DNA of 64,000 nucleotides from an archaeon (GCA_018693315.1 JABHLR010000002.1:2445-66444), one strand, 5' to 3'. Positions 6,794 through 33,824 are shown, counted from the stretch's first letter. The notes: generated by a model not told the origin, from the letters alone. Made by a program: numbers and translations.

Positions 6794-6921
6794 TTAAATG
6801 GGCGCAGGAGGAATTTTTTATTCGCAATTTGCATTTCGTAAAATATTAATTAATTAATTTTACTCAAAGCGAATTGCTCACCCCCACCGAGGTATGCGTT
6901 AAATGGGCGCAGGAGGAATTT
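6794..6921 (-). repeat. 23-bp duplication of tRNA-Trp 3' end enclosing a family A hairpin
   Basis: ttaaatgggcgcaggaggaattt at 6794-6816 and 6899-6921. Confidence 0.9.
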
Positions 6922-6974
6922 AACCCCCACCTCCCGGGCTGGAGCCGGGTAGACTAACATTATCCGATGCACCC
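6904..6974 (-). tRNA. tRNA-Trp(CCA), no intron
   Basis: Cloverleaf GGGUGCA/UGCGCCC-A; anticodon arm CCCGG-CUCCAGC-CCGGG; T arm GGGGG-UUAAAUU-CCUCC. Confidence 0.88.
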
Positions 6975-7061
6975 AATAAAGAAGATAGAGTCTTTCCGTT
7001 TTTAAAGTTAAGTACTTTCTTTTCCCAATACTTTTATAAATAAGTTTATCTTAACTTTAGC

Positions 7062-7547
7062 ATGGTGAAAAAGGTGGTGAAGAAGACTGTCACTGAAACT
7101 ATCAATGATGATGGTTCCAGGAAGACTGTTGTTAAGGAGCATGCGCCGAAGGAAGTTGTGAAGAAGAAGCCTGCTGTGAAAAAAAAGAAGATGACGGCGA
7201 GGGAGCGGGAAGAGTTATTGATTGAGAATTTTGTTGGGCTTCAGCATGCTATGACGAATATGTCGATTAAGTTTGGTTCTTTGTCTGATAATATTAGTAA
7301 GTTGTTGCAGGTTTTTGAGGAGTCGGCGAAGAATTTTGTTTCTGGTGGAAAGAGTGATGATAGGGATATGTTGAAGAAGATTGATTCATTGTTGAACCAA
7401 AATAAGACGATTGCTAAGGGTTTGGTTTTGATGGAGGGGAAGTTGAGGGGGAGATCTGAGGAGCCGAAGGCGATACCACCTAGGGTGGAAATGAAGCCTA
7501 GGACGGAAGCACCTCAAATGAGACCCAGGCCACTTCCAAGCGCATGA
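7062..7547 (+). CDS. Hypothetical coiled-coil protein
   Basis: ORF with upstream TATA (ttttataaat); heptad-like core. Confidence 0.65.
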   Translation: MVKKVVKKTVTETINDDGSRKTVVKEHAPKEVVKKKPAVKKKKMTAREREELLIENFVGLQHAMTNMSIKFGSLSDNISKLLQVFEESAKNFVSGGKSDDRDMLKKIDSLLNQNKTIAKGLVLMEGKLRGRSEEPKAIPPRVEMKPRTEAPQMRPRPLPSA

Positions 7548-8221
7548 GTTCTGTAGATGTTTCTATGATAGCCGCTGATCCATTTATTAGTAAATTTGTT
7601 TTTGCGATTATCCAAAATATTCGTGCCAAGAATTTTGATTATGATGACCGGCATGTGATTCACGCTGACATGGTTCCGAGAGCTTCTGAGAGGGTCATAC
7701 ATGCTTCGCTTGGGGAAAAGATCACTAGAAGGGTTCCTGCTATGGCTCCTGCTGTTCGGAAGAGAGATATGAGTGCTTTGGTCGCTCCGATTGCTAGGCC
7801 GAGGATGAGAGCGCCGATTCAGCAAGTTGCTCCCCCTGTTCAGGCTCAGACGATGGCTCCACCTATTCAGCAAGCTGCCCCAATTGTTCCGCAGGGTATG
7901 CCGCCTGGGTTGACTCAGGATTATGGGAAGATTACTCCTTTGTTGAATGATCCTTCGATTTCTACGATTGAGTGTCAGGGTCCAGGAAAGCCGGTGATGA
8001 TTATTCGGGCTGGGCAGAAGCAGGTGACGAAGATTGTTTTGAGCGGGAAAGATATTAAGGAAGTTTTGGATAAGGTTTCGGATGCTGCGCATATTCCTTT
8101 GCTTGAGGGTGTGTTTCGTGCGGCTGTTGATAATTTTTCTATTAATGCTGTGATTTCTGAGATGATTGGTTCGCGGTTTGTGATTAAGAAGCAGACGGCT
8201 TATGCAATGCTGGAGCGGTAG
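7544..8221 (+). CDS. Protein with Pro/Gln-rich linker and a domain like the N-terminus of VirB11/FlaI-type secretion ATPases (no ATPase domain)
   Basis: YGKITPLLNDPSISTIEC.GPGKPV; no Walker A. Confidence 0.6.
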   Translation: MSSVDVSMIAADPFISKFVFAIIQNIRAKNFDYDDRHVIHADMVPRASERVIHASLGEKITRRVPAMAPAVRKRDMSALVAPIARPRMRAPIQQVAPPVQAQTMAPPIQQAAPIVPQGMPPGLTQDYGKITPLLNDPSISTIECQGPGKPVMIIRAGQKQVTKIVLSGKDIKEVLDKVSDAAHIPLLEGVFRAAVDNFSINAVISEMIGSRFVIKKQTAYAMLER

Positions 8222-8251
8222 GCTTAAAAGATATAATTTGATTATTTATTT

Positions 8252-8533
8252 ATGGAAGATAAGATTACGCCCGAGAAGCTTGAGAAATATTTTGATTTGA
8301 CTAGTCGGGCTTTGGCTGAGGTTAAAGAGAATATAATTTCTGGAAGAGAGGTTGATGCTAAAGAGATTGTTGATATGGTTTCTAATTATTTGTCAGATGC
8401 TAAGCACTTTGAGGGTAAGGGGGATTTTATTAATGCTTTTGCGGCTTTGAATTATGCGCATGGGTGGTTAGATTCTGGGGTTCGATTGAAGGTTTTTGAT
8501 GTTACGGACGATAAGTTATTTACAGTCTGTTGA
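8252..8533 (+). CDS. DUF357 protein
   Basis: Y.SDA.HF...GD..NAFAALNYAHGWLD.G. Confidence 0.9.
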   Translation: MEDKITPEKLEKYFDLTSRALAEVKENIISGREVDAKEIVDMVSNYLSDAKHFEGKGDFINAFAALNYAHGWLDSGVRLKVFDVTDDKLFTVC

Positions 8534-8857
8534 TACTGATAGAACTCTTTTTAGAAAGTTTACATAGAGTTCTTGTGGAACTTCCTCTGGGCTTTTTCCC
8601 TTAAATTCTGGAACTAGTCTAGAAAGCTCCTTCCATCCTTTTGTGCCTCCGTCGTTTGCTAGTTTTTCTAATACTGCTTGTGGACCTGCGCCGTTTCCTT
8701 GATATTCTAAAGAATAATGCTCTCCTCTGTATTCGAACGTAACTTTCCCATCTTTTGCTTCGGCCAAGAAATTAAAGCCATGTAGTCCTCCGAACGTATT
8801 GAATTCTTCCGCTGTTCTTTGGGCGTAGCGCTCTGAATCTTGTTGGGCTTGACTCAT
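8516..8857 (-). CDS. Hypothetical protein
   Basis: 113-aa ORF; no motif recognised. Confidence 0.55.
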   Translation of the reverse strand: MSQAQQDSERYAQRTAEEFNTFGGLHGFNFLAEAKDGKVTFEYRGEHYSLEYQGNGAGPQAVLEKLANDGGTKGWKELSRLVPEFKGKSPEEVPQELYVNFLKRVLSVSTDCK

Positions 8858-8932
8858 ATAATTATAGGTTTTTGAAGTTAATAATATTTACTATACCAGA
8901 ATGTATATAAATTGGGTTTGTCTTTTTGGGTT

Positions 8933-9613
8933 ATGGAAAAAACTTGGGTGATAAGTTTGGGTGGTTCGCGGATTGTGCCGGATGATGTTGACGATAAGTT
9001 TCTTGCGAGGTTTAAGAAATTGATTGATGCGCATCGTGGTGTGAGATTTGTGGTTGTGACTGGTGGAGGTTCTACGGCGAGAAGATATATGTCGGCCTTG
9101 AGGAAATTGGGCAAGAAGACGCAGACTCAGTCGAGGGAAGGGATCGCGGTTACGAGATTACATGCTGGATTTATGGCGAGGTTTTTTGGGAAGTCGGCTA
9201 ATAGTAGTGTGCCGTTGAATATGAAGGAAGTTAAAAATTCGCTTGGGAAAAATCGTGTTGTGTTTTGTGGGGCGTTGAGATATGGGACGAAGCTTACGAC
9301 TGATGGTGTGGCGGCGAGGGTTGCTGGATATTTGAAGAGTCCGTTTATTAATTTGACTAATGTGAAGGGGTTGTATAGTGCGAATCCGGCGACTCATAAG
9401 AATGCGAAGTTTATTGGGAAGATTGGTTGGAAGAAGTTTTATGATATTGCGAAGGGAATTAAGTTTGCGGCTGGGCAGCATTTTGTTTTGGATCAGTCGG
9501 CGGCGAATGTGATTATGAAGAAGAAGATTGTGACTTATATTGTTGGGTCGCTTTCTGCGATTGATAATATTCTTAAGGGGAAGAAGTTTGTTGGGACGAG
9601 GATTGGGGGATGA
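8933..9613 (+). CDS. pyrH: UMP kinase
   Basis: VISLGGS, VVTGGG..AR.Y, TTD.VAA, TNV.GLY..NP. Confidence 0.92.
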   Translation: MEKTWVISLGGSRIVPDDVDDKFLARFKKLIDAHRGVRFVVVTGGGSTARRYMSALRKLGKKTQTQSREGIAVTRLHAGFMARFFGKSANSSVPLNMKEVKNSLGKNRVVFCGALRYGTKLTTDGVAARVAGYLKSPFINLTNVKGLYSANPATHKNAKFIGKIGWKKFYDIAKGIKFAAGQHFVLDQSAANVIMKKKIVTYIVGSLSAIDNILKGKKFVGTRIGG

Positions 9614-10122
9614 AACTGAAAAAAATTAAATCTAAGGCTGGGATTGTTGATGGTTGTGATGGGTATTTGATTGATGCTGATGAGAAAGTTGCTCGGGCTA
9701 TTGTTGCGTCGCTTAAGGATAAGAAATTTGGTGGGGTTGTTGCTGTGCTTGGTCGGAGTGGTGGATTTAACAGGAGAGTTGTTGAGAGTTTGAAGATTGA
9801 TTGTTTGGTTTCTCCTGAGTCGGGGGATAGGAAGGATAGTTTGAAGCAGAGGGATTCGGGTTTGAATCATGTTGTTGCTAAGGCTGCTAAGGCTAAGGGT
9901 ATTGAGGTTGTTATTGATTTTGATTCTTTGGTTGAGATGAAAGGTAAAGAGAAGGCTTTGGGGTTGGCGAGAATTATGCAGAATGTTAAGATTTGTCGGC
10001 GGGCTAAGTGTGGGATTAAGATTTGGGGAAGTGTCGATGAAAAGGCTTTGAGGAGTTTTGGGTTTAGTGTTGGAATGTCGAGTGTTGAGGTTAGGAAGGC
10101 TGTTGCTGCGGAGATTTTATAA
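9610..10122 (+). CDS. rnp3: RNase P protein component Rpp30-like
   Basis: NR..VE...D.L.SP....RKD...QRDSGLNHV.AK.A....I. Confidence 0.8.
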   Translation: MKLKKIKSKAGIVDGCDGYLIDADEKVARAIVASLKDKKFGGVVAVLGRSGGFNRRVVESLKIDCLVSPESGDRKDSLKQRDSGLNHVVAKAAKAKGIEVVIDFDSLVEMKGKEKALGLARIMQNVKICRRAKCGIKIWGSVDEKALRSFGFSVGMSSVEVRKAVAAEIL

Positions 10123-10142
10123 AGAGTTTTGTCTTAGGTTTT

Positions 10143-11891
10143 TTGATGGTGAGTATTACTGGTTATGCTGTGGATGTTGTGAGTGGGATTGGGAATCATA
10201 TCGCGAAATTGCCGGCGAGTGAGGCGATTATTTTTGATATTGCTGTGATCTTGATTGTTGCTGCGATACTTGCTTTTATTGCTAAGTTTTTGAGGCAGCC
10301 CTTAATTCCTGCTTATGTTTTAACTGGTTTGATTATTGGTCCGCTTGTTTTCGGATTTGTTAGGAATTTGGATTTGATTTATGCGTTCTCTGAGATTGGA
10401 ATTGCTTTCCTGTTGTTTACGGCGGGGCTTGAGATTTCGTTTAAGAAGATTAAGGAGGCTGGGCTGAAGAAGATTGTTTTGATTGGGTTGTTGCAGGTTG
10501 GTGTGATTTTTGCGTCTGTGTTTTTTCTTGCTGACTTTATGGGGTTGACTAGTTTGCAGGCTGCTTATATTGGTATTATTTTGGCGTTTGGTTCTACGAT
10601 GGTTGATATTAAATTGTTGGCTGATCGTGGTGAGTTGGTGACTTTACATGGGCGTTTGGTTTTGGGTATTTTGTTGTTTCAGGATTTGATTGCTATTATT
10701 GCGATTGTTGTTTTTACTTCTGGTAATTTTGCTGTTGGTCCTCTGTTTATTGCTTTTGCTAAGCTTGCGACGATTTTGATTGTGGCGATAGTTTTGCAGA
10801 AATATGTTTTGAATAAGTTGTTTAGGTTTGCTGCTAGATCTAATGAGTTGTTATTTTTGTCGTCGCTGGCTGTGCTTTTCTTCTTTATTATTTTGACCTA
10901 TGTTTCTGAGTTGTCGATTGTGATTGGTGCTTTTATTGCTGGGGTTTCTTTGGCTAATTCGCCGTTTAAGATGGAGTTGGAATCTCGTGTTGCTCCGCTG
11001 AGGGATTTCTTTGCTATTTTGTTTTTTGTCGCTCTGGGTATGCAAATTGTGTTTAGTGGGATTGGTGAGAGGATGGTTTTGTTGTGGGTGCTTTTGGCTG
11101 GTGCTTTTTTGATTAAGCCGATTATTACTTTGATTCTTTTGAGGGTTACTTGTTATCGTTCTCGGACTAGTTTCTTTACTGCGATTTCGCTTGCTCAGCT
11201 TTCTGAGTTCTCTTTGATTATTGGTGCGATTGGTGTTTCGATGGGTGCTTTGGATGTTTCGATTTTTTCGACTGTGATTTTGGCGACGATTATTACGATG
11301 TCTGTTACTCCTTACTTTATTAATTTGAAGGATGGGTTGTATCGGGTTTTTAAGTATCCTGTTAGGATGTTGCGGTTTTTGCCGATGAGAGATGATTTGA
11401 AATATGAGCGTGGGGACGATAAGGATGTTTTGTTGATTGGGTCGCATAGGATGGGTGGAGCTTTGATGGAGGAGTTGCTGGGTAAGAAAGATAAGTTGTT
11501 GGTTGTTGATTATAATCCTGAGGTGATTGGGATTTTGAAGAAGAAGAAGGTTTCTTGTATTTATGGTGATGTTACTAGCCCTGAACTCCTGGACAAGATT
11601 AATCTTAAGAAATTGAGGTTGGTAATTTCGACTATTCCTGATTATGGTGAGACTCTGCATTTGTTGAAGAAAATTAAGAGGGTTGCGCCGAAGGTTAAGG
11701 TTGTTGTGACGGGGTCGAGGATTAGTGAGGCTTTGAGATTGTATAAGGCTGGGGCTGATTTTGTTGTGACGCCGAAGATTATTGCTGGCCAGGAGTTGGC
11801 TGAAGTTATACACGGCAGTAAGATGGATCTGAAGAAGGAGAAGAGGAAGCATTTGAAGCATTTGAGTGAGATACATAAGTTGCTTTACTAA
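10143..11891 (+). CDS. Kef-type cation:proton antiporter with TrkA-N domain
   Basis: CPA2 TM domain (LRDFF..LFF, QLSEFS) plus C-terminal GxxxxG / YGD domain. Confidence 0.9.
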   Translation: MMVSITGYAVDVVSGIGNHIAKLPASEAIIFDIAVILIVAAILAFIAKFLRQPLIPAYVLTGLIIGPLVFGFVRNLDLIYAFSEIGIAFLLFTAGLEISFKKIKEAGLKKIVLIGLLQVGVIFASVFFLADFMGLTSLQAAYIGIILAFGSTMVDIKLLADRGELVTLHGRLVLGILLFQDLIAIIAIVVFTSGNFAVGPLFIAFAKLATILIVAIVLQKYVLNKLFRFAARSNELLFLSSLAVLFFFIILTYVSELSIVIGAFIAGVSLANSPFKMELESRVAPLRDFFAILFFVALGMQIVFSGIGERMVLLWVLLAGAFLIKPIITLILLRVTCYRSRTSFFTAISLAQLSEFSLIIGAIGVSMGALDVSIFSTVILATIITMSVTPYFINLKDGLYRVFKYPVRMLRFLPMRDDLKYERGDDKDVLLIGSHRMGGALMEELLGKKDKLLVVDYNPEVIGILKKKKVSCIYGDVTSPELLDKINLKKLRLVISTIPDYGETLHLLKKIKRVAPKVKVVVTGSRISEALRLYKAGADFVVTPKIIAGQELAEVIHGSKMDLKKEKRKHLKHLSEIHKLLY

Positions 11892-11922
11892 ACCTTAAAA
11901 ATGCGTTAATCTATGGAGCTAT

Positions 11923-13440
11923 ATGGAAGATAAATTGATTATTGAGTCGTTGTCGCCGATGGAGCGGAGCGTTTTGCCGAAGTTGAGTGGAGATTTTTTG
12001 AGTATTGAGGATGTTTCTGAGAACGCTGATTTGGATAAAACTACTGCCCTGAGAGCTGTTGGGTTTTTGAAGAATAAGGAGCTGGTTGAAGTTGAGAGCG
12101 CTGAGAAGAAAGTTGTGATTCTTGGGATTTTGGGTGTTAATTACTTGAAGAAGGAGTTGCCTGAGCGGGTTTTGTTGAATAAGTTGTCGGAGAAGAAATC
12201 TATTTTGATTGGGGAGATTCGAAATGTTTGTGGGTTGAATGAGAATGAGGCGAAGATTGCGTTGGGGACTTTGAAGAAGAAGGCGCTGATTGGTATTGAT
12301 GGCGGGAAGTTAGTTTTGAATGCGAAGTCGAGTGAGGTTTCTAGCAAGATGGTCGAGGAGTTGTTTCTTGAGAAGTTGCCGATGGAGGTTGGGGAGGTTA
12401 AGGACTTGGATGCTTTGGCTTTTGAGAATTTGAAGAAGCGAAAGGATATTGTCGAGGTTGAGGAGCAGAAGTCTATGAGTGTTAAGTTGACTGGGTTGGG
12501 GGTGAAGATTTCTAAGATGAATTTGGATGATAATTTGCTGGAGGCTTTGACGCCGAAGATTTTGAAGCAGAACGCGTGGAAGGGAAAGAAGTTTAGGCGG
12601 TATGATTTGTCGTCGCCAGTTCCGAGGATTTATGGGGGGAAGAGGCATTTTACGAATCAAGCTAAGGATCATGCGAAATCGATTTGGTTGGAGATGGGTT
12701 TTAAGGAGATGAGTGGGAATTTGGTCGAGACTGGGTTTTGGGTTTTTGATGCTTTGTTTACGGCTCAGGATCATCCGGTTCGGGAGATGCAGGATACGTT
12801 TTATTTAAAGGACATGAAGGGTGAGCTGCCGGCTAAAGATATTGTTAGCGGGGTTAAGAAGGCTCATGAGGGTGGAATTGATGGGTCTAAGGGTTGGCAG
12901 TATAAATGGGAGGAGGAGAAGGCAAAGAAGGTTTTGCTTAGGACGCATACTACTAATTTGTCGGCTAGGAAGTTGAAAGAGATTGCGGATACTAAAGAAT
13001 TTCCTGCTAAGTACTTTTCAATTGGAAAATGTTTTAGGAATGAGACTGTGGATTGGTCGCATGGTTTTGAGTTTAATCAGACTGAAGGGATTGTGGTTGA
13101 TGAGAATGCTAATTTTAGGCAGTTGATTGGATATTTGACTCAGTTCTTTAATAAGATGGGATTTGATAAGCTTAGAATTAGGCCTGCTTATTTTGCGTAT
13201 ACCGAGCCGTCGTTGGAGATGGATTACTTTCATCCTGTGCATAAGAAGTGGGTTGAGCTCGGGGCGGCGGGGATGTTTAGGCCTGAGGTTACGATTCCTA
13301 TGTTTGGGAAGCATGTTCCTGTGTTGGCTTGGGGTCCTGGATTTGATAGAATTATGACTCAGTTTTTTGAGATTAATGATTTGAGGGAATTGTATAAGAA
13401 TGATATTAGTAAATTACGGGAGACTAAGGTTTGGAGATAA
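11923..13440 (+). CDS. pheS: Phenylalanyl-tRNA synthetase alpha (archaeal type)
   Basis: FDALF..QDHPVREMQDTF, LRTHTT, FRNE.VD..H..EF.Q, YTEPS. Confidence 0.97.
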   Translation: MEDKLIIESLSPMERSVLPKLSGDFLSIEDVSENADLDKTTALRAVGFLKNKELVEVESAEKKVVILGILGVNYLKKELPERVLLNKLSEKKSILIGEIRNVCGLNENEAKIALGTLKKKALIGIDGGKLVLNAKSSEVSSKMVEELFLEKLPMEVGEVKDLDALAFENLKKRKDIVEVEEQKSMSVKLTGLGVKISKMNLDDNLLEALTPKILKQNAWKGKKFRRYDLSSPVPRIYGGKRHFTNQAKDHAKSIWLEMGFKEMSGNLVETGFWVFDALFTAQDHPVREMQDTFYLKDMKGELPAKDIVSGVKKAHEGGIDGSKGWQYKWEEEKAKKVLLRTHTTNLSARKLKEIADTKEFPAKYFSIGKCFRNETVDWSHGFEFNQTEGIVVDENANFRQLIGYLTQFFNKMGFDKLRIRPAYFAYTEPSLEMDYFHPVHKKWVELGAAGMFRPEVTIPMFGKHVPVLAWGPGFDRIMTQFFEINDLRELYKNDISKLRETKVWR

Positions 13441-13441
13441 G

Positions 13442-15088
13442 ATGACTATATTAACAGTTGATAGGAAAGAGTTTGAGAAGAAGGCTGGGAAGGTTACTAA
13501 GGAGCTTGAAGATAAGATTACGATGATGGGGACGCCGATTGAGGAAGTTAGTGATGCTGAGGTTAGTGTTGAGGTTTTTCCTAATAGGCCTGATTTGTTG
13601 TCGATGGGGAATTTTGCTAGGGCTGTGAATCAATTTAACGGGAAAGGAAAGGTTGCTAGTTTTAAGATTAATAAGCCAGAGAGTGATTTTGTTGTGACGA
13701 TTGATAAGAGTGTTAAATCGGTTAGGCCTCATACGGTTTGTGCAATTGTTAAGGGATTGAAGTTTGATGACGCTAAGATTAAAGAGATTGTTGATATTCA
13801 GGAGAAGTTGCATAATTCGCTTGGGCGGAAGAGGAAGAAGTTGGCGATTGGGATTTACCCGCTTGATAAGATTAAGTTGCCGATTAGGTTTATTGGACGG
13901 AAGCCTGAGGATATTAAATTCTTGCCGTTGGAGGCTAAGGCTGAGATGACAGGTAGGCAGATTTTGAGAGGTCACCCCGCTGGTCGTGAGTATGCTGATT
14001 TGTTGAAAGACATGGAAGTGTTTCCGATTTTTGTTGACGCTAATGATGAGATTCTTTCGATGCCGCCGATTATTAATTCTGAGAAAACTGGCAGGATTGA
14101 TGAATCTACTAAGGAAATTTTTATTGAGTGCTCTGGGTATAATTTGGTTTATTTGAAGAAGTGTTTGAATATTATTGTTGCGGCTTTGGATTCTATGGGC
14201 GGAAAGGTTTATGCTATGGATGTTAAGGATTCCAAGGACAAGGATTTTGTGTCGCCTGATATGAGCGCTGAGGAGTTGAGTTTTAAGATCGAGGATATTG
14301 AGAAGACGCTTGGGATTTCATTGAAGGAGAAGGATGTTGTTGGTTATTTGGCTAGGATGGGGATTGGTTATGATGTTAAGAAAAAGGTTGCTTTAATTCC
14401 TGCTTATCGTGCTGATATTTTGCATTGGGTTGATTTGGCTGAGGAGGTTGCGATTGCTTATGGTTATGATAAGTTTGTGCCTGAGATTCCTGAGATTTCT
14501 ACGATTGCCGAGGAGAATCCTGTTGATAAATTAAAAAGGACGATTGGAAATGTTTTGGCTGGTGTTGGGTTACTGGAGACTTCTAGTTATCATTTGACGA
14601 CTAAGAAGAATGTGAAGAGAATGCATTATGAGTTTAATGATTTTATTGAGGTTGAGGATTCGAAGACTGAGCGGGATGTTTTGAGGATTGATTTGTTGAC
14701 GAATCTTTTACAAATAGCTTCGGAGAATAGTGATGCTTCCTACCCGCAGAAAGTTTTTGAGATGGGGACGGTCTTTGCTCGGGATGAGAATAGCTCAACA
14801 GGTGTTTTTGAAAAAGAGAGATTAGCGATTGCTTTAGCTGATGAGAATATTAGGTTTACGGAGATGAAACAGATCTTGGATTATTTGTTTAAAATGTTGG
14901 ACGTTGAGTACTCGATTGAGGCAGTGGATAATTCGAATTATATTATTGGTAGGTGCGGAAAGATTGTTGTTAAGGGGAAAGAAGTTGGGCTTGTTGGTGA
15001 GATTGCGCCTAGGGTTTTAAAGAATTGGAAGATTAAGATGCCTGTTGTTGCGTGTGAGATGGGGCTTGGGTTTTTGATGGAAGAATAA
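13442..15088 (+). CDS. pheT: Phenylalanyl-tRNA synthetase beta
   Basis: PNRPDLLS, QEKLH..GR.R, SMPPIINS, YRADILH..DLAEEVAIAYGY. Confidence 0.97.
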   Translation: MTILTVDRKEFEKKAGKVTKELEDKITMMGTPIEEVSDAEVSVEVFPNRPDLLSMGNFARAVNQFNGKGKVASFKINKPESDFVVTIDKSVKSVRPHTVCAIVKGLKFDDAKIKEIVDIQEKLHNSLGRKRKKLAIGIYPLDKIKLPIRFIGRKPEDIKFLPLEAKAEMTGRQILRGHPAGREYADLLKDMEVFPIFVDANDEILSMPPIINSEKTGRIDESTKEIFIECSGYNLVYLKKCLNIIVAALDSMGGKVYAMDVKDSKDKDFVSPDMSAEELSFKIEDIEKTLGISLKEKDVVGYLARMGIGYDVKKKVALIPAYRADILHWVDLAEEVAIAYGYDKFVPEIPEISTIAEENPVDKLKRTIGNVLAGVGLLETSSYHLTTKKNVKRMHYEFNDFIEVEDSKTERDVLRIDLLTNLLQIASENSDASYPQKVFEMGTVFARDENSSTGVFEKERLAIALADENIRFTEMKQILDYLFKMLDVEYSIEAVDNSNYIIGRCGKIVVKGKEVGLVGEIAPRVLKNWKIKMPVVACEMGLGFLMEE

Positions 15089-15183
15089 TTGCGAATATGT
15101 TAGTTTTAAGAATTTGTGTATGTTGTATCTTTTAAGGAGTAACATGTAGTAACCTTTATAAGTTAAATAATTTCTAATAAGAT

Positions 15184-16510: not shown

Positions 16511-16523
16511 TCTTTTGAAATGA

Positions 16524-17003
16524 TTAGCCGAAGTAACTTCGTTTTTTTGATATGTCATCAGTTTCGAAATTTGTTTCTAGGTTTTCGATGAGCTTCATTA
16601 TTGTCGGCTTGAACTCTTGCCAGATTATGAAGGCTTCGTTGATGAATTTTGCTTCTTCTTTCTCGTTGTAGATTGTGTCGAGTTTCATTATTTCGATTTG
16701 GGTTCGTGATAGGGCCTTGTAGATTTTCTTTATTGTTTCTTTGTCTGTTTCGGACATATTTCTGATAATTGAAAATACGAACATTGGGGGTGAACTTGGG
16801 TTAATTAGAGTTTCAAAAAGATGGAGATATGCTGCGATCTTTTCATTGATTGTTCTACGAATTTCCCGGACTAAGAACATTGATTCTTTATCTTGGATCT
16901 TCTCGATGTCAAAATCTTCGGCTATTTTTTGGAATTCAGGCAAACTATGTTTTTGTGCTAGTTCGTTATATACTGCTTCGAAGTCGAAGTCGTCTTTTTC
17001 CAT
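16524..17003 (-). CDS. Hypothetical helical protein
   Basis: 159-aa ORF with upstream TATA. Confidence 0.65.
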   Translation of the reverse strand: MEKDDFDFEAVYNELAQKHSLPEFQKIAEDFDIEKIQDKESMFLVREIRRTINEKIAAYLHLFETLINPSSPPMFVFSIIRNMSETDKETIKKIYKALSRTQIEIMKLDTIYNEKEEAKFINEAFIIWQEFKPTIMKLIENLETNFETDDISKKRSYFG

Positions 17004-17056
17004 AAAGTAGTTGCGAGGGGAGTGTTTATAAATTTAAGTGGGGAAGAGTTTATGTT

Positions 17057-17177
17057 GCCGCAGTAGCTCAGTTTTGATAGAGCGCGTCATTGGTAAAGTA
17101 AGTTCGAAGAACTTTCATGTTTTGAATTTAAAAATCCAAAAATGACGAGGTCACGGGTTTGATCCCCGTCTGTGGCT
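17057..17177 (+). tRNA. tRNA-Thr(GGU) with 46-nt intron at 37/38 (17096-17141)
   Basis: GCCGCAG/CUGUGGC acceptor; CGUCA/UGACG anticodon stem; BHB helix UUGG/CCAA with AAA bulge. Confidence 0.9.
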
Positions 17178-17497
17178 TATCTTCTGGGCTGATCTGTGTC
17201 TGTATTGTTTACTTTAATTGCATTTCCGACTAGTCCTACTGTGTCGGATCCTATGTCCCAGAGGCTTGATGCTGTTTGACCGATCCATCCGAAGTAGATG
17301 TAGACTGCGTTGACGACTCCTCGTGGTGATGTTAGATCGACTTGGCTTGATGTGAATATGTTTATCATTGAGAAGTATATTAGGGCTCCGATTAGAACTA
17401 TGATTACGACTTTCATTTTTCGGGAATGGTGCTCCATTTTTAGATACCAGAGGCCGGCTAGAACGAATACTGCTACTATCACCCATTGGACTATCAT
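17177..17497 (-). CDS. Small membrane protein
   Basis: Two to three hydrophobic segments. Confidence 0.65.
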   Translation of the reverse strand: MIVQWVIVAVFVLAGLWYLKMEHHSRKMKVVIIVLIGALIYFSMINIFTSSQVDLTSPRGVVNAVYIYFGWIGQTASSLWDIGSDTVGLVGNAIKVNNTDTDQPRR

Positions 17498-17561
17498 GTT
17501 ATGTTAAAGGGATTGTGTTATAAAAAGTTATCTTTTTATAGTTGAAAATGTTTGGTTAATT

Positions 17562-18224
17562 ATGAAGAAGAGGCTTAAGGTTTATTTATTTAGACATGGG
17601 AAGACGACGTTTAATCGTGATGGGCGCTTCACGGGGCAGTCAGAAGCTAGGTTGACGGCGGAGGGTCGGAAGCATGCGAATATTATTGCTAAGAAATTGA
17701 GGGGTAAGAAGTTTGAGGTTGCGATTCGTACTCATTTGTCTAGGTCAAAGGATACATTGAGGCCTGTTTTGGAGTTTCATCCTGAGTGTAAGATTATTTT
17801 GGAGGATGATAGGATGATTGAGAGGAGTTATGGTGATCTTGAGGGGACGACACATGAGCAGTTTATTGATAGAATTGGTGAGCGGAGTTATGATTTGAGG
17901 GTTCATGGGGATGCGATTGAGAATCTTGAGCCGAAGTTGAGGGATAAGGTTGAGGAGTTTTTGGGGAAGGAGGAGTATAAGGCGATTCATAGAGGGTATA
18001 AGGTTGCGGCTCCGGGTGGCGAGTCTTTTAGGGATGTTGAGAAAAGGGTTAAGAAGTTTATTAAGTGGCTGAAGAAATATATGAGAAAGAATAAGGTTAA
18101 TGTTGCGATTTCGGCGCATGGGAATTCTATTCGGTTGTTTCGTAAGATAATGGAGAGGGCCCCGAAGAAAGAGGTTGTTAGTTGGTTCATTCCTTATGAT
18201 AAGGTTTTTGAGTATTCGATTTAG
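17562..18224 (+). CDS. Histidine phosphatase family protein (phosphoglycerate mutase-like)
   Basis: RHG.T..N, ERSYG.LEG, PGGES, SAHGNSIR. Confidence 0.9.
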   Translation: MKKRLKVYLFRHGKTTFNRDGRFTGQSEARLTAEGRKHANIIAKKLRGKKFEVAIRTHLSRSKDTLRPVLEFHPECKIILEDDRMIERSYGDLEGTTHEQFIDRIGERSYDLRVHGDAIENLEPKLRDKVEEFLGKEEYKAIHRGYKVAAPGGESFRDVEKRVKKFIKWLKKYMRKNKVNVAISAHGNSIRLFRKIMERAPKKEVVSWFIPYDKVFEYSI

Positions 18225-24942: not shown

Positions 24943-24995
24943 TGTTAATCTCGGTGTCGCAATCTTTAAAAGCTGTTTTATTCTCTTTTTGTTAT

Positions 24996-25156
24996 GCTCC
25001 TATAGTCTAGAGGCCAAGGATGCCACCCTCTCAAGAGGTGGGAAACCCTCGTCGATGAGACAACGGTTTCATGTTCGCTTGAACAACCACTAAAATCTCT
25101 CACGAGATTTTGTTGGAGAACGGTGGTGACCCGGGTTCGAATCCCGGTGGGAGCGT
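24996..25156 (+). tRNA. tRNA-Glu(CUC) with 87-nt intron at 37/38 (25034-25120)
   Basis: GCUCCUA/UGGGAGC acceptor; CCACC/GGUGG stem; BHB helix CUCU/GGAG with AAC bulge; canonical GGUUCGAAUCC. Confidence 0.9.
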
Positions 25157-25285
25157 TATACCCTCTTGACCAATCGCGGGGACATATTTTTTGTTTAGAA
25201 ATAACTAAATGAAAACTAAAAAACAAGAATTTTTGAAAAATATGTCACCAGTAGGTGGTCGACAATTATTATATAGTCTATTTTT

Positions 25286-26488: not shown

Positions 26489-27357
26489 TTCCATTCTTAT
26501 TATTGGCGATAGCTTTCTCTTTTATTCTTGCCGAACCGATTCATAAGATTGAGAAAGAAATTCAAGAATTTCCAAGTAAATTAGTATCTTTTTTTACTAA
26601 TACGATTTTTATTATTTTCATAATTATTTTGTTTTCAGTTGGATTAATTTTTCTAATATTCTTCAAATATAAATCACATAGAGAACACAAAAGGATTGAA
26701 ATAGAGAAAAAAGAAATTAGAAAATCATTCAGCCCTAAGGCTAGAAAAATTTACCTTAAGGAGAATGAAGATAAAGAAATTAATGAAAAAGAATCAGAAG
26801 AAGATGTTGAGGATGAAGAATCATACGAACCTCTACCAATAGGAACCTATCAAAAAAGTGTGAATATAAAGGTTGATTCAGGTAAAAGATATTTTCACAA
26901 GAAGGACATAAGCAAAGATGAAGTTGAATATCTTCTGGATGAAGGTTATCAAATTAAAAAATATAAAAACCTCTTAAATAGTAGAATGGAAAAATTTCTT
27001 TTACAGCCGAGACATAATGAAAGTTTTACTCATTTATTTTTAACCCATAATATTTCCGAATTTCTAGAAAAAGAAGGTATTGAGACGGAATTATACACAA
27101 CTAAAAAACCAGATATTGTTTTTGAAATTCGTGGCAAGAGGTTTGCGATTGAAATAGAGACAGGTTCTATTTTTTCTAAGATTAGTAGGATGAAAGAAAA
27201 ATTAAAAGTTCTAGAGAATTATGACAAGTGGTTTTTTGTTGTGACTGATAGAAATAAGGTGAAGAAGTACAAAAGATATGGAGATGCAGTAGATAAAAGA
27301 TATGTAAAACCTAGGCTAGATAAGCTGATAAAACTCGCTAAAAAAGCCCAAAAATAG
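26482..27357 (+). CDS. Membrane-anchored protein with PD-(D/E)XK nuclease-like C-terminal domain
   Basis: N-terminal TM segments; KPDIVF...AIEIETG. Confidence 0.6.
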   Translation: MLIPFLLLAIAFSFILAEPIHKIEKEIQEFPSKLVSFFTNTIFIIFIIILFSVGLIFLIFFKYKSHREHKRIEIEKKEIRKSFSPKARKIYLKENEDKEINEKESEEDVEDEESYEPLPIGTYQKSVNIKVDSGKRYFHKKDISKDEVEYLLDEGYQIKKYKNLLNSRMEKFLLQPRHNESFTHLFLTHNISEFLEKEGIETELYTTKKPDIVFEIRGKRFAIEIETGSIFSKISRMKEKLKVLENYDKWFFVVTDRNKVKKYKRYGDAVDKRYVKPRLDKLIKLAKKAQK

Positions 27358-27488
27358 GACTCTGGATTTTGGGTGTGTAAATGGGGTCCTATCGTCGATA
27401 AATATTAGTATAAATTGGCAAAGAGTCAGTCGGCATAATATGTATGTGTAGGGGTAGTGACTAGGAGGTAAATTATTCTTATTTCTAG

Positions 27489-28067
27489 TTAATTCTCAAA
27501 CGCTATCAGATAAAAATAATGTCGATGCTTAAATGGGAAAAAATCTGTTCTCTGCTTAAATTTCTTGTAGATTATTTTCTTATCTAGCTTCTTCAACGTG
27601 TCCTTTATATCTAAATCATAAAACTTTTTGTTTTTATCAAGATTTATAATTTTCCGATCCAATGTAATTATTCCCAAACCACCCTTTTTTATAACCCTTT
27701 TAAATTCCGATAAAACTTTTAGCACATCAGTATAGAATAATGAATTTACGCAATAAACAACATCAAAGGAATTATCTTTAAATGGCATTTTCCCCATATC
27801 TCCCTTAGTAAACTTTATTTTTGGGTAATCCTTTCTTGCCCTTTTGATAAATTTCATATCATAGTCCAACCCCTCTGCGACAATGTTTTTCTGGTTCAAT
27901 AAATTCGTATGTTCTCCCTGTGCACAACCCACATCAAGAACCTTAACGGACCTCTTCTTAAAGTACTCATCTATTAACACGACAGTCAACTCCACATCAT
28001 TTTTTCTATTTGTCCAATGAGATTTTCCCTTATGGATAATCTTTATTGTTTTCTTATCAATTCCCAT
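27489..28067 (-). CDS. Class I SAM-dependent methyltransferase
   Basis: VLDVGCAQG, GDM..MPF.DNSFD, E..RV.K.GG. Confidence 0.9.
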   Translation of the reverse strand: MGIDKKTIKIIHKGKSHWTNRKNDVELTVVLIDEYFKKRSVKVLDVGCAQGEHTNLLNQKNIVAEGLDYDMKFIKRARKDYPKIKFTKGDMGKMPFKDNSFDVVYCVNSLFYTDVLKVLSEFKRVIKKGGLGIITLDRKIINLDKNKKFYDLDIKDTLKKLDKKIIYKKFKQRTDFFPFKHRHYFYLIAFEN

Positions 28068-28077
28068 ATTAAAATAA

Positions 28078-28821
28078 TTACAGCTCCTCTCTCCAAAAGA
28101 CGACCCTCTTCTCAATAAAAACAACAGCAAAATACATAATTAATCCAATCAATACAACATATAATAAGCCCGCGAATACCATTGCTGAATCCAACAAAGA
28201 AGCTGAATAGCTAATTTGATACCCAAGTCCGACACTAGAACTAATAAACTCCGCTACAATTGCCCCTACCGAAGCGAGAGCGATACCTATCTTTAACCCA
28301 GTAAACAAATAAGGTAAAGAATATGGGATTTGTACATTCCTTAATATCTCTGTTTTCGTACTACCCGCAGCTTTCATTATATTAATAAAACCTTTATTCA
28401 CAGACTCGATCCCTTTATTCAAATTAATAAAAATCGGAAAAAAGCAAACCAAACTAACAGTAATTAATTTTGGCAAAATTCCATGGCCAAACCAAATTAA
28501 TAGAAGAGGTATTAGTGCAATTTTTGGTACAATTTGAACCCCGACAAGCATTGGGTGTATAATTTCCTTAACGTATCTAGAATATACTCCCAAGATAGCC
28601 ACAATAAAAGCAAAAATTACGGCGACGAAAAAACCACTTAATATCTCTGACAAAGTCCAAAATGCATGCTCAGTTAAAATAGAAAAATTTTGTATAAATA
28701 CTGTAATTATTTCTATTGGTCCTGGAAGCAAAAAAGACGGAATATTAAGAAAACCTACCACAAATTCCCAAATAACGAGTAGAAGCAATATCGTTCCAAG
28801 TTGATAAATTAGCTTTTTCAA
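28078..28821 (-). CDS. ABC permease (SsuC/TauC/NitT family)
   Basis: LP.P, P.IA..PLL..WFG.G, EAA-like loop, GAIVAEF...GLG. Confidence 0.92.
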   Translation of the reverse strand: MKKLIYQLGTILLLLVIWEFVVGFLNIPSFLLPGPIEIITVFIQNFSILTEHAFWTLSEILSGFFVAVIFAFIVAILGVYSRYVKEIIHPMLVGVQIVPKIALIPLLLIWFGHGILPKLITVSLVCFFPIFINLNKGIESVNKGFINIMKAAGSTKTEILRNVQIPYSLPYLFTGLKIGIALASVGAIVAEFISSSVGLGYQISYSASLLDSAMVFAGLLYVVLIGLIMYFAVVFIEKRVVFWREEL

Positions 28822-30464
28822 CTTAACACCTCTTGAATCTCATTAAGAATCTTATTATATTTTTTTAATGATTTTATTTTTTTAGTCCTTGGTCGAGGGA
28901 AGGGGACATCATAAACTTTCTTTACAATTGCAGGGCTTCCTTTTAAAATAAATATTCTATCCGACAACAAAATAGCTTCATCTATATTATGGGTAACCAT
29001 AACAATCGTAATCAAGTGCTTTTTGCACAAATTCATAATCAACTCATTCATCTTGTATCTGGTTATATAATCCAAAGCTCCAAAGGGCTCATCCAGAAAA
29101 ACAATATGTGGCCTAGTTATTAAAGCTCTTGCAATAGCAACCCTTTGTTTCATTCCACCAGAAAGCTGATGGGGATAATGATTTTCAAAGCCAGTTAGCC
29201 CAACCTCCTCGATCATTTCATCAACATTGACATCATGATTCAATATCTCCGCAAAAAAGACCACATTCTCCCTCAAAGTCTTCCATGGCAACAAATTCGC
29301 AGATTGCGTAACAAAACTAAATTTTTTCTGCAATTCTTTTGTCAATGCCTTACCCTCGTAATCTACCTTCCCCTCGTAATTCTCATCTAAGCCACTCAGA
29401 ATATTTAAGAATGTAGACTTCCCACATCCCGATTCTCCAAGAATCGTTACAAATTCCCCTTCATTTATGCTAAAATTAACATCCTTAAGAATTTTTTGGG
29501 GTTTTTGATTCAAACTAAAACTCTTAAAAACTCTTTCTGCAGATATTGTTTTTGGAATCTCTTTAGACTTTAGTCCATTGACAAATTTGTTAGTAAAAAA
29601 CTCTCCAATATCAACATCCCCTTCCAATAGATTAGCAGTAGTTAAAATATCCTTAAGTCGTATCCAATCATGCTTACTCTGCACACCATTGCTCGCATTT
29701 TCAGACAAAGGCAATCTTTCATCAAGCTTCAATCTACTTTCAAACATCTTTTTTTGATAATCCTTCTCATCCGCCAATTGAGGATTTTGTTTCATCATTA
29801 TATCAAAAGACTCTTTTGGATACTTTCTCTCATAACTCATCCCCTTTAGAATTGCATTGGTAAACCCCTGGACAATCTTAGGATTCTTTTCCGCATAATC
29901 AGAATTAGCAACCAAACAAAGACCATAAGACTTTAAGCCGTAATCATAAAAAAGAATATTACTTAGTTTTTTATTTTTCTCTCCTGCCATTAAGAATGGG
30001 TATGTCACAAAGTGTTTTACGCCCTTTTTTAAAAATTTATTTCCCAAACCATCTACTGGCATCTCAAAAATATTATCTCTATTAATATTATTTTTTAGTA
30101 GAAAAGCAGAATACATTTGATAAGAATTACTATTTAAAATCACACCAACCTTTTCACCCTCAAGGTTTTTTGGATTTGATATTTTTTTCCAAGAGACTAT
30201 CCCCGAAGGATTTACCTTACCAACAACAGCTATAACTTTAATTGGCAAACCCTTGCTCCTTGCTATCATAGCTGTTTCTGCACTCACAATCCCCATAGCA
30301 TACTCTCCAGACCCTACCTGTTCACTGGTAATCTTCGAGCCTAAATTCTGCACAATTGAAACATCCAAGCCCTCTTCTTGAAAAAACTTCTTTTCTTTAG
30401 CAACATAGGAAAAAACCCATGAACCACCATGAAACCAGCTAATAGGAAAACTTAGCTTTTCCAT
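28818..30464 (-). CDS. NMT1/THI5-like substrate-binding domain fused to ABC ATPase
   Basis: N-terminal part paralogous to the upstream SBP (SWFHGG); C-terminal GESGCGKST, LSGGMKQR, LDEPF. Confidence 0.85.
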   Translation of the reverse strand: MEKLSFPISWFHGGSWVFSYVAKEKKFFQEEGLDVSIVQNLGSKITSEQVGSGEYAMGIVSAETAMIARSKGLPIKVIAVVGKVNPSGIVSWKKISNPKNLEGEKVGVILNSNSYQMYSAFLLKNNINRDNIFEMPVDGLGNKFLKKGVKHFVTYPFLMAGEKNKKLSNILFYDYGLKSYGLCLVANSDYAEKNPKIVQGFTNAILKGMSYERKYPKESFDIMMKQNPQLADEKDYQKKMFESRLKLDERLPLSENASNGVQSKHDWIRLKDILTTANLLEGDVDIGEFFTNKFVNGLKSKEIPKTISAERVFKSFSLNQKPQKILKDVNFSINEGEFVTILGESGCGKSTFLNILSGLDENYEGKVDYEGKALTKELQKKFSFVTQSANLLPWKTLRENVVFFAEILNHDVNVDEMIEEVGLTGFENHYPHQLSGGMKQRVAIARALITRPHIVFLDEPFGALDYITRYKMNELIMNLCKKHLITIVMVTHNIDEAILLSDRIFILKGSPAIVKKVYDVPFPRPRTKKIKSLKKYNKILNEIQEVLS

Positions 30465-30465
30465 G

Positions 30466-31482
30466 TTATTCACTCCTCGTAACAAATTCATTCGTAAAAA
30501 ATTCTTCTAAGTTAACATCAGAATCCAAGAAACCCAGATCATCCATAATATCCTCAGTATTCTGCCATGTTTCTAAATCTTGTAGCCCATCTGTTGGGTC
30601 TGATCCCCCAAATAGCTTATCATTAAACTCATTCCTCATATAAAATAATTTTTCTTCATATGGAGCATTAAGTTCTGGATTCTCCTCTAGCATTATCCTT
30701 AATGCTTCCTCTGGATTTTCTTGCTCATATTTAAAACCCTTTAAAATCGCATTAACGACTCTTTGCACAATCTCTGGATTCTCCTCTAGATAATCATCAT
30801 TAACAACAATACCATGACTATACATATTTAATCCATGATCATAATAAACTAAAGTATTCGTCTCAACTCCCTTCAAATCAGCAATTGACTTTGTAACAAA
30901 GGGTGATAACGCATGACAATCAACCGCTCCAGCAATAAATTCTTGCCCAGCACCAGAAATTGGAATCTCCTCAATCTTTGATAAATCTATATCATTCATC
31001 TTGGCAAACATTAAAAATTGTTGATAAGTGTTACTTGTACGCGTCACTCCAATCTTCTTTCCCTCAAGGTTTTTTGGATCACTCAGATTCACATCTGTAT
31101 GACATGTTAATCCAGCATGTGAAACCTTGTCAATAATAGCGACAACAGTTAAAGGAACTCCTTTGCTCTTAGCCATTAAAGCTACATCTGCAGAAACTAT
31201 ACCAATAGGAGATTGTCCAGAGCCAATTAAAGAACTCGTAATAGTAGACCCCTTATTTTCATGAAGAGTTACTGACAATCCTTCATCGGCAAAATAACCA
31301 TTATAATCTGCTACATACGCATATCCCCAAAAACCACCATGAAACCAACTTAATTCAAAATCTATTTCATTTAAGCCTCCAGTAGATTTTTCATTCGAGA
31401 AAAAGATAAAGCCCAATACTAATACCAACACAACGACGACGACTAAGAAAGACCACTTTTTCAAACCATTACCCTTTTTCAT
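30466..31482 (-). CDS. ABC substrate-binding protein, NMT1/THI5 family
   Basis: N-terminal TM anchor; GYF.DEGL.V, L.GKKIG, FTNEF. Confidence 0.88.
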   Translation of the reverse strand: MKKGNGLKKWSFLVVVVVLVLVLGFIFFSNEKSTGGLNEIDFELSWFHGGFWGYAYVADYNGYFADEGLSVTLHENKGSTITSSLIGSGQSPIGIVSADVALMAKSKGVPLTVVAIIDKVSHAGLTCHTDVNLSDPKNLEGKKIGVTRTSNTYQQFLMFAKMNDIDLSKIEEIPISGAGQEFIAGAVDCHALSPFVTKSIADLKGVETNTLVYYDHGLNMYSHGIVVNDDYLEENPEIVQRVVNAILKGFKYEQENPEEALRIMLEENPELNAPYEEKLFYMRNEFNDKLFGGSDPTDGLQDLETWQNTEDIMDDLGFLDSDVNLEEFFTNEFVTRSE

Positions 31483-31756
31483 ATCAGAGAGAGGTATTAT
31501 TCTTTTATAAAGTTTTTCAAATCTTCTAATCACCCTAAACTCTCAGAAAGATAAGTACACTTGTGCTCCTCAATCAACTGCACAATTTTCTCGTCAGCAA
31601 TCAACTCTCCAAACTCATTCGACAACTTTCCGCCACCCATATACTCAACCTCGACAATCCTTAAAAACTCTAACCACCAACGACAATTAAACTAAACAAA
31701 GTTCATAAACAAAAAATTTAGTTGTCCCCTCCCGATGCCAAAAAGGTCAGGTCGGC

Positions 31757-31865
31757 GGCGGGAGCGTTTCTGTGATTTGAACGGTTCAAATTGAGCGATT
31801 CGCTTTGAGGAAAACAATTTTAAGTATATTTTTCCGAGATGCAAATTGCGAATAGGCGGGAGCGT
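31757..31865 (+). repeat. 11-bp direct repeat resembling the tRNA-Glu 3' end, enclosing a family A hairpin
   Basis: ggcgggagcgt at 31757-31767 and 31855-31865; internal tgagcgattcgctttgag...atgcaaattgcgaata matches 6820-6880 (- strand). Confidence 0.85.
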
Positions 31866-31964
31866 GAAATGAAAATTTTCTAGAGGCAGGAGAAGTCATG
31901 TCGTCCCCGTTACTTCCTGACAATCAATACAAAGACATAAAAAGCAAATTTCATCAGTAAAGTT

Positions 31965-32927
31965 ATGGTAGCTAAACCAAAAGCGCCGAAGATCAATGAT
32001 TTAATCTTTAAGGAACTCATTAAAAGAGGCTACTCTCTAGAAGGAAATACGCGAATCTGGAACATCGCCGACTCAAAACTCTGGTACCTAACACCTGACC
32101 AAGCACAGTCATACCTAGATTTAGAAGACGAAGAGAAATATAAGGAAGAGGTAACAAACAAAGAGCTAAAACTTATTGATGAAAATATAGACGAAATTTT
32201 AAAAGAGGCAGGAGGAGGCCCATTAAATATCATAGACTTAGGATGCGGAGACGGAAAGAAGGTGGTAAAATTCATCGAAAAACTAAAAGGAAAAGTAAAG
32301 TTGAGATATTGCCCAATCGACATAAGCGGCTACATGGTAAGCAAAGCGATCGAAAGAATAAAGAAACTAAAAGCAGGAGAGATCGTAGAATTTCAATGGA
32401 ACATATCAGATTTTGAAAATATAGAAAACATAACAGAATTATTGAGACAAGGAGAATTCAAGAAACATCTAATTTTATTATTAGGTAACACGCTCGGGAA
32501 CTTTGAAATCAACGAGCTATTATACGAAATCAGAAGTTCGATGAAGGGAAACGATTTACTTGTCATCGGCAACGGGATAGATAACGGAAAGGTTGATACT
32601 CGTGCGGAATCTTATGAGAAAAATGAAACAGTAGATAGATTCTTAATAAAAATCCCATTCCAACTTGGACTTAAGCCAAGCGAAATAGAAATAGGAACGA
32701 GATTTAAGAATTCCAGAATAGAATTGTATTATACGATAAAGAAAGACAAAGTAATCAAATTCCAAGAAAAGGAAATTCAATTTCAAAAAGGAGATCAAAT
32801 TATAGTAGCAGTTGGATACAAATATCCAAAAGAAGAATTTATGAGCTATTTGAATATTCATTTCGATGATGTCAGTGCGAAAACCTCTGAAGATGGAACA
32901 CAGATTCTAGCCCTCTGCAAAAAATAA
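31965..32927 (+). CDS. EgtD-like (histidine N-alpha) methyltransferase family protein
   Basis: IIDLGCGDG.K, Y.PIDIS, LLGNTLGNF, SRIE. Confidence 0.75.
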   Translation: MVAKPKAPKINDLIFKELIKRGYSLEGNTRIWNIADSKLWYLTPDQAQSYLDLEDEEKYKEEVTNKELKLIDENIDEILKEAGGGPLNIIDLGCGDGKKVVKFIEKLKGKVKLRYCPIDISGYMVSKAIERIKKLKAGEIVEFQWNISDFENIENITELLRQGEFKKHLILLLGNTLGNFEINELLYEIRSSMKGNDLLVIGNGIDNGKVDTRAESYEKNETVDRFLIKIPFQLGLKPSEIEIGTRFKNSRIELYYTIKKDKVIKFQEKEIQFQKGDQIIVAVGYKYPKEEFMSYLNIHFDDVSAKTSEDGTQILALCKK

Positions 32928-32993
32928 CTCAAAGATTTAATTCATATTTCTCAACCCCAATAACTTTTTATATCTATTTTAATCAGTATTACT

Positions 32994-33136
32994 GATCCTG
33001 TAGCTCAGTCTGATCAGAGCGCTAGTCTTATATGGCTACAGTTCCTCCGGGAATTGTAAAAGCTTTCGCTTGAAAATCTTTAGGGATTTTCGCTTGAGAA
33101 AGCTAGAGGTCCCGGGTTTAAATCCCGGCAGGATCA
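32994..33136 (+). tRNA. tRNA-Ile(UAU) with 68-nt intron at 37/38 (33033-33100)
   Basis: GAUCCUG/CAGGAUC-A acceptor; CUAGU-CU-UAU-A|A-GCUAG; BHB helix CUUA/UGAG with AAA bulge. Confidence 0.88.
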
Positions 33137-33823: not shown

Positions 33824-33824
33824 A

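Follow-up and report, generated by a model that had tools for sequence, protein, structure and literature searches.

Natural A-U and U-A pairs in place of G19-C56 at the elbow of single-copy tRNAs in a family of small-genome DPANN archaea

Introduction

What does a cell require at positions 19 and 56, where tRNA's D loop meets its T loop at the elbow: particular bases, or a pair? The question is raised by a 64,000-nucleotide stretch of archaeal DNA (GCA_018693315.1, JABHLR010000002.1:2445-66444; hereafter the window, with positions counted from its first letter), for which an initial annotation, made from the sequence alone, had read A19-U56 in tRNA-Thr and tRNA-Ile, U19-A56 in tRNA-Trp and the canonical G19-C56 in tRNA-Glu. 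We confirm that the elbow swap is real, that it is conserved and that it reaches wider than the window. As its explanation we favor, with a probability of roughly 60%, a relaxation of selection on base identity, accompanied by compensatory change, which the loss of T-loop modifiers would have permitted.

RNase P, the L1 stalk and T-boxes all make use of the 19:56 pair as a platform. A section of PMC3664808 describes the stacking of the L1 stalk and of RNase P on this platform; stacking itself would not appear to demand G-C. Passages of PMC4117946 and PMC7912444 present G19-C56 as conserved or 'virtually universally conserved', and a passage of the former reports that in the yeast SUP4oc suppressor tRNA the pair tolerates no single mutation. 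The methylated nucleotide Cm56, the product of Trm56, is introduced in part of PMC7912444 as a hallmark of archaeal tRNA.

Elbow pairs of the window tRNAs

The window was searched with Rfam cmscan (model RF00005, gathering score 29 bits), which finds exactly four tRNAs, each above the gathering score, at 44.0-53.7 bits. ARAGORN run without introns reports the tRNA-Trp alone; with introns allowed it reports all four, mislabelling the Ile-UAU gene as Ser. The introns of the tRNA-Thr, tRNA-Glu and tRNA-Ile genes all lie in the anticodon loop.

tRNA-Trp(CCA) (6904-6974, minus strand; no intron; 52.7 bits) has the D loop AAUGUUA and the T loop UUAAAUU; G18 is at 6958, U19 at 6957, U55 at 6922 and A56 at 6921, which makes the elbow pair U19-A56. 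tRNA-Thr(GGU) (17057-17177, plus strand; anticodon-loop intron; 46.3 bits), with D loop AGUUUUGAUA and T loop UUUGAUC, has G18 at 17076, A19 at 17077 and U54, U55 and U56 at 17158-17160, and hence A19-U56. The same pair is found in tRNA-Ile(UAU) (32994-33136, plus strand; with intron; 53.7 bits), where the D loop is AGUCUGAUCA and the T loop UUUAAAU, with G18 at 33012, A19 at 33013 and U56 at 33119. tRNA-Glu(CUC) (24996-25155, plus strand; 87-nt intron at the canonical 37/38 site; 44.0 bits) serves as an internal control, with G18 and G19 at 25012-25013, C56 at 25138 and a canonical G19-C56.

The covariance-model alignment and the raw sequence concur on the elbow positions of all four. The alignment bears out the four pairs as first read, and in none of the three variants does it restore a G at 19 or a C at 56: pairing is kept and base identity lost in Thr-GGU, Ile-UAU and Trp, while Glu-CUC retains the G-C. 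The surrounding elbow nucleotides G18, U54, U55 and A58 are kept in all four tRNAs in the Rfam alignment.

Genome-wide occurrence and copy number

The assembly that holds the window (G000; the relatives compared below carry labels of the same kind, such as G002 and G003) comprises 674 kb in 8 contigs at 39% G+C and is 87% complete. It represents a small archaeal genome with archaeal-type tRNA introns, an archaeal RNase P RNA and Cbf5. ARAGORN with introns allowed predicts 37 tRNAs in it, and Rfam 35. A swapped 19:56 pair occurs in five of the 37: A19-U56 in Thr-UGU, Thr-GGU, Thr-CGU and Ile-UAU, and U19-A56 in Trp. The two tRNA-Thr genes outside the window lie at C2:20848-20919 and C8:25100-25172. 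In 31 of the 37, GG in the D loop is accompanied by UC at 55-56. The proportion given by the initial annotation, three tRNAs of four, therefore holds within the window and fails as a frequency, since the local sample overstates a genome-wide 5/37.

According to both ARAGORN and Rfam, the swapped tRNAs are the sole genes found for Thr-UGU, Thr-GGU, Thr-CGU, Trp-CCA and Ile-UAU, no canonical second copy for any of these anticodons appearing among the 37 and 35 predictions from the 87%-complete assembly. They are thus not spare copies, and as far as DNA can tell the variants would not be duplicates of canonical genes. The Thr genes of the same-genus genome G024 likewise have no second copy found for the same anticodons; G024 holds, besides, a second ARAGORN 'Trp-CCA' call of 89 nt. 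The variants rank among the lowest-scoring matches here, and tRNA finders and covariance models penalize tRNAs with swapped elbows.

Covariation among orthologues

Orthologues were fetched by BLAST from related genomes. Positions 18 and 19 were read off the ARAGORN loops; for the variants, canonical orthologues were compared as well.

A19-U56 is present in tRNA-Thr of nearly all same-genus genomes recovered, the exception being G013, with G19-C56 in Thr-CGU; in genomes from other families of the order tRNA-Thr carries G19-C56. For Thr-UGU, a family-level search (one genome per genus, plus same-genus and same-family genomes; 11 genera of the family) yielded 15 distinct sequences, with A-U in eight, G-C in six and U-A in one, all 15 paired. 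The three tRNA-Thr of a single genome, G005, carry U-A, A-U and G-C.

tRNA-Trp switches just as freely. Over 15 genomes its states are U-A in five, A-U in six and G-C in four, and the genes of G000 (U-A) and G002 (A-U) are 92% identical. In a gap-free alignment of 13 sequences (A-U 6, U-A 4, G-C 3) all 13 are paired, and the 19:56 pair has seven changes on both sides, tying with the most variable acceptor pair. In the orthologue alignments of Trp and Thr-UGU the 19:56 pair thus matches the most variable helix pairs of these tRNAs in its variability, in a background where 99.7% and 100% of helix cells are paired.

The tRNA-Ile-UAU swap is a recent event. A-U is seen in one of 16 genomes, G000 itself, and G-C in ten same-genus and five other-family genomes. 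Base by base (the comparison takes in G000, G003 and G004), the 39-nt 5' exon of G000 differs from that of its closest relative, G003, solely at position 19, and the 3' part compared differs at 56 and at one base of the variable loop.

On a conservative count, the states observed require no fewer than about eleven separate double substitutions. They fall in Thr-UGU, Thr-CGU, Thr-GGU, Trp, Ile-UAU, Met-CAU of G289 and Ala-GGC of a distant family.

Survey of related genomes

In seven further genomes every Rfam tRNA was located, its DNA fetched and ARAGORN run. Swapped 19:56 pairs were found in four of 37 tRNAs of G024 (same genus), including all three Thr, in two of 37 of G005 (same genus), in one of 37 of G289 (another genus of the same family; Met-CAU, U-A) and in one of 34 of G029 (another family of the order; Trp, U-A). 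There were none among the 39 tRNAs of G044, from another family of the class and without Trm56, nor among the 35 and 24 of the Trm56-positive genomes G224 and G193.

The pooled set, which is enriched for orthologues deliberately sought and contains kin that are not independent, holds 403 distinct tRNA predictions, of which 400 were assignable: G:C in 351, A:U in 41 (42 with one misfold resolved) and U:A in 8. ARAGORN gave a wrong D arm in three of the 403; alignment assigns A19-U56 to one of these (L040), and the other two (L224 and L250) were excluded from the 19:56 count. Among the 400 there is no non-Watson-Crick 19:56 combination and no C-G, and every tRNA without G19 (50 of 50) carries the complementary base at 56, so that chance is excluded.

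A strict sequence pattern, combining A19 in a D arm of the Thr type with U56 in the T arm, was run on 401 genomes sampled across the phylum and matched six. Three are G000 and two further genomes of its genus, one belongs to another genus of the family, and two come from a distant family, where the match is in tRNA-Ala-GGC. The reversed-pattern control gave 0 matches. The pattern is insensitive, catching two of five sampled same-genus genomes, and its count is a lower bound. The survey shows that the swaps are concentrated in one family and sporadic elsewhere. They are limited to certain tRNAs, mainly Thr and Trp, rather than general.

These data bear on a further explanation, that the variants stem from misassembly, or are pseudogenes or tRNA-like fragments of mobile elements. 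G000 is after all an incomplete metagenome-assembled genome (MAG), and displaced tRNA fragments do adjoin several of its genes. Yet the variants score 46-54 bits against the cut-off of 29, their stems are intact in the orthologue alignments, they are the sole genes found for their anticodons, and the same elbow states recur in dozens of independently assembled genomes. Public sequencing runs agree: a contig of run X5, from another study, spans 16771-17956, including the tRNA-Thr gene, and one of run X2, from the probable source study, spans 31725-33872, including the tRNA-Ile gene, both with zero differences from the window. These are DNA contigs. Near-identical DNA occurs in marine and seawater metagenome runs of several studies, and no RNA run was found to contain the stretch. 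We regard artefact or decay as close to refuted. The initial annotation had likewise held that the paired changes speak against sequencing error or decay.

DNA contigs of X5 and X2 also skip the 87-nt intron of tRNA-Glu-CUC exactly, joining 25032 to 25120, which indicates an intron-less allele in related strains of the same waters.

Small elements at tRNA genes

Behind seven of the 37 tRNA genes of G000 (at C2:20848, C3:9347, C4:28969, C5:82173, C5:122229, C5:176999 and C7:7234) lies an insertion of about 55-100 nt and, after it, a displaced second copy of the 3' end of the gene itself. T-loop-directed integration is thus real in this genome, and the initial annotation had offered, as one of two explanations, that the elbow diversified to evade integrases or nucleases that target the T loop. 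Under such a conflict the elbow bases would change to escape mobile elements or nucleases recognizing the T loop or T-loop DNA.

In the window, an 86-nt hairpin-rich insertion (about 6817-6902, minus strand) lies directly 3' of tRNA-Trp, followed by a duplicate of the tRNA 3' end (6798-6816, minus strand) that runs from 56/57 in the T loop to the discriminator; the element boundary is ambiguous by one base. A 52-nt stretch of the insertion matches the 3' flank of tRNA-Gln-UUG on contig C2 at 86.5%. Similar ends mark the elements at Arg-CCU, Ser-GGA, Thr-UGU and Trp; in all four the duplicated core begins right after position 56. At Met-CAU (two tandem 69-nt units) and Phe the duplication takes in the whole T arm, its start lying in the 5' strand of the stem.

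The heavy load of elements, seven genes in 37, and the placement of position 56 beside the crossover site of one element family count in favor of such a conflict. The details run the other way. The right end GAGTAAA(A), or a near variant, adjoins tRNAs with C56 (Arg-CCU, Ser-GGA), U56 (Thr-UGU) and A56 (Trp) alike, so that the base at 56 does not exclude these elements. Elements are carried by two of the five swapped tRNAs versus five of the 32 others, which is no depletion, in numbers too small to test. Position 19, moreover, lies far from such a site and still changes in step, as RNA structure predicts and DNA targeting does not. Evasion of T-loop-targeting integrases is not supported by the comparison of C56, U56 and A56 genes, the window tRNA-Trp among them. 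No T-loop nuclease was found, no search aimed at one having been made. Conflict-driven diversification as a whole appears very unlikely.

Modification enzymes and RNase P RNA

The initial annotation had proposed a check for trm56 and for the S-domain of RNase P RNA, and both were looked for. Trm56 (PF01994) was found in none of the 41 genomes of the order, versus four of four archaeal controls. In a sample of the phylum at >= 90% completeness 31 of 301 genomes are positive, with none among the 13 from the family of G000.

Pus10 was found above cut-off in none of the 41 order genomes. Weak TIGR01213 matches in 37 of the 41 were considered as a divergent Pus10 and rejected, as they fall on the 295-aa open reading frame (ORF) of Cbf5, which scores 254.7 bits against its NCBIfam cut-off of 242. 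No TrmI was found in G000 or in five same-genus genomes at 91-100% completeness. Fibrillarin, on which a guided route to Cm56 would depend, was likewise not found in G000; of the five same-genus genomes, one gave a match.

RNase P RNA is retained. RF00373 detects it in 31 of the 41 genomes of the order, at 34-90 bits in the genus versus 74-180 bits in the other families. In G000 it lies at C5:178157-178447 (L077:258-548; minus strand) and scores 80.8 bits against a cut-off of 84, covering the entire model (positions 1-288). P12 is cut to a few bases, and the conserved S-domain junction motifs AGAAACGA and GAUGGAACG align. We take these motifs to be the J11/12- and J12/13-like junctions that dock the elbow, partly on the basis of PMC3664808.

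Other elbow positions

Positions 18 and 55 vary as well. Nine of the 403 distinct tRNAs have A18/G55 in place of G18-U55. The variant, with G19-C56 retained, occurs in the tRNA-Cys of G000, G005, G014 and G044, Leu-AAG of G029, Ala-CGC of G224 and three tRNA-Thr of G044 (UGU, CGU and one that ARAGORN calls AGU). The tRNA-Cys of G000 (C4:23366-23436; L079:167-237) combines A18 and G55 with a retained G19-C56, and its G024 orthologue is canonical. C55 replaces the near-universal U55 in ten of the 37 tRNAs of G005 (loci L149-L161), where pseudouridine 55 is therefore impossible, and tRNA-Val-GAC has C55 in four other genera.

The elongator-type tRNA-Met-CAU of G000 (C4:28969-29042; L080:171-242) and that of G024 have the T loop GUCAGCA, with G54 and G58 and without the usual U54-A58 partners; the same loop is present in the displaced copies behind the gene.

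Interpretation

The reading that we prefer, at the rough probability given above, is that selection would maintain the geometry of the 19:56 pair, a flat platform on which RNase P RNA and the L1 stalk can stack, while the identity of the bases would no longer be selected in this family of small-genome DPANN archaea. The pair would then evolve by double compensatory substitution like an ordinary helix pair. The permissive step would probably have been the loss of the factors that read T-loop bases, namely Trm56 (with Cm56), Pus10 and TrmI. AT-biased mutation, taking G-C to A-U via a G-U intermediate, and drift in small symbiont populations could add to the change. A pair that is kept while its bases vary accords with the continued presence of readers that stack on a flat Watson-Crick surface, and with the absence of enzymes that would require C56 or a canonical T loop. 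To judge from their single-copy status and conservation, the variant tRNAs are probably processed, charged and used; the swaps would be nearly neutral and modifier loss enabling.

This outcome supports, with qualifications, the other explanation of the initial annotation, that the elbow constraint is relaxed in the lineage. Base identity is indeed free, given that G-C, A-U and U-A replace one another, that 18 and 55 vary and that no Trm56 was found in the 41 genomes of the order. A general relaxation is not what the data describe: the change affects certain tRNAs (5/37 in G000), it is concentrated in one family, and RNase P RNA is kept.

Several points weigh against our reading. The gene absences on which it leans mean 'not found', since the genomes are incomplete MAGs. 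Trm56 is missing from 270 of the 301 sampled phylum genomes while the swaps cluster in one family, and the Thr-type A19-U56 pattern was matched in six of 401 genomes only; because Trm56 is absent from most of the phylum and swaps are rare outside one family, we treat modifier loss as permissive and not as causal. The Trm56-positive control consists of two genomes, and related genomes are not independent. AT bias does not explain the flips from A-U to U-A, which in close relatives need two transversions by way of a mismatch, and none of the mismatch intermediates G-U, A-A or U-U is seen in the 400 tRNAs. The main weakness is that a neutral account leaves the bias toward Thr and Trp unexplained. 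The changes are non-random over tRNAs, affecting all three Thr in G000 and G024 and elsewhere Thr, Trp, one Met and one Ala; together with the A18/G55 of the G044 tRNA-Thr, the Thr bias argues for a tRNA-specific factor outside the neutral model.

The same bias speaks for functional tuning, under which selection would favor an altered or less stable elbow pair in Thr, Trp and a handful of other tRNAs. Such a pair might adjust elbow flexibility or release from the L1 stalk, suit cold marine water, or act as an identity determinant or anti-determinant. Beyond the swap of all three Thr isoacceptors in G000 and G024, tuning can draw on the alteration of Thr at 18:55 in the unrelated family of G044, on the persistence of A-U in Thr over several genera and on the marine and seawater origin of the runs with near-identical DNA. 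A fixed functional requirement would not flip as these pairs do, however. The three states of Thr in G005 argue directly against one, Thr-CGU of G013 is G-C inside an A-U genus, Trp alternates between A-U and U-A in close relatives, and the Ile-UAU swap is confined to one genome. Nor is recognition of the elbow known for any aminoacyl-tRNA synthetase for Thr, Trp or Ile. Tuning is therefore unlikely in our judgement.

It could further be supposed that the elbow is a fast-evolving interface driven by conflict or by tRNA-specific selection and not by drift, with bases forced at 56 and compensated at 19. The first candidate driver would be the tiny integrative elements that recombine at 56/57, along with the T-arm-duplicating families, which could in principle overwrite the T loop of the host; the second candidate would be an elbow-reading factor that acts on tRNA-Thr and tRNA-Trp. 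We hold this to be quite improbable, and retain relaxed identity with compensatory change as the better account.

Comparison with known systems

These tRNAs share with the canonical elbow (G18-Psi55, G19-C56, U54-A58; RF00005) the cloverleaf, G18, U55, U54, A58, the loop sizes and a Watson-Crick 19:56 pair; they differ in that the pair is A-U or U-A and not G-C. Natural tRNAs without the canonical G19-C56 contact have precedents in yeast tRNA-Asp, as a passage of PMC4117946 describes, and in animal mitochondrial tRNAs, for which erosion has been described. There, either the contact itself has gone or the loops have eroded, whereas here the pair is kept and its bases are swapped; unlike the mitochondrial case, the present one concerns a cellular, non-organellar genome with otherwise normal tRNAs. 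Nanoarchaeum equitans is likewise a DPANN archaeon, reported in part of PMC7337903 to be without Pus10 and TrmY; that part describes T-loop modification and does not mention altered 19:56 bases. It was the one paper that a literature search on DPANN archaea and the T loop turned up.

A full-text literature search found no published description of natural A-U or U-A elbows, and for C19-G56 it gave one paper, on transfer-messenger RNA (tmRNA). Combinatorial 'purine trap' work on T loops from the Steinberg laboratory is said to offer a precedent.

The tRNAs described here form a natural series of single-copy, presumably essential tRNAs with G-C, A-U and U-A in one genus and sometimes in one genome. 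The series suggests that the requirement in vivo at this site is a planar Watson-Crick pair, and it provides matched natural substrates for asking how RNase P, the ribosome and the modification enzymes read the elbow. Where reduced genomes lose T-loop modifiers, RNA positions that are otherwise frozen may become free to change.

Additional features

A tRNA with a UCA anticodon is present in G000 at C6:132255-132329 (minus strand; L078:356-430), scoring 57.5 bits in Rfam, with C33 and a 2-nt bulge in the T stem. Genome-wide recoding of UGA was considered and rejected: ORFs of >= 100 aa under the standard code cover 88.7% of G000, and TGA ends 290 of 1098.

In G000 two CAU tRNAs only were found, initiator and elongator Met, in addition to Ile-GAU and Ile-UAU, so the probable reader of AUA is the UAU tRNA rather than a CAU tRNA that has been modified.

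Across positions 1-64000 of the window there is a very strong GC skew, which reaches +0.48 in 4-kb bins and flips its sign near 28-32 kb; AT skew changes in the opposite way.

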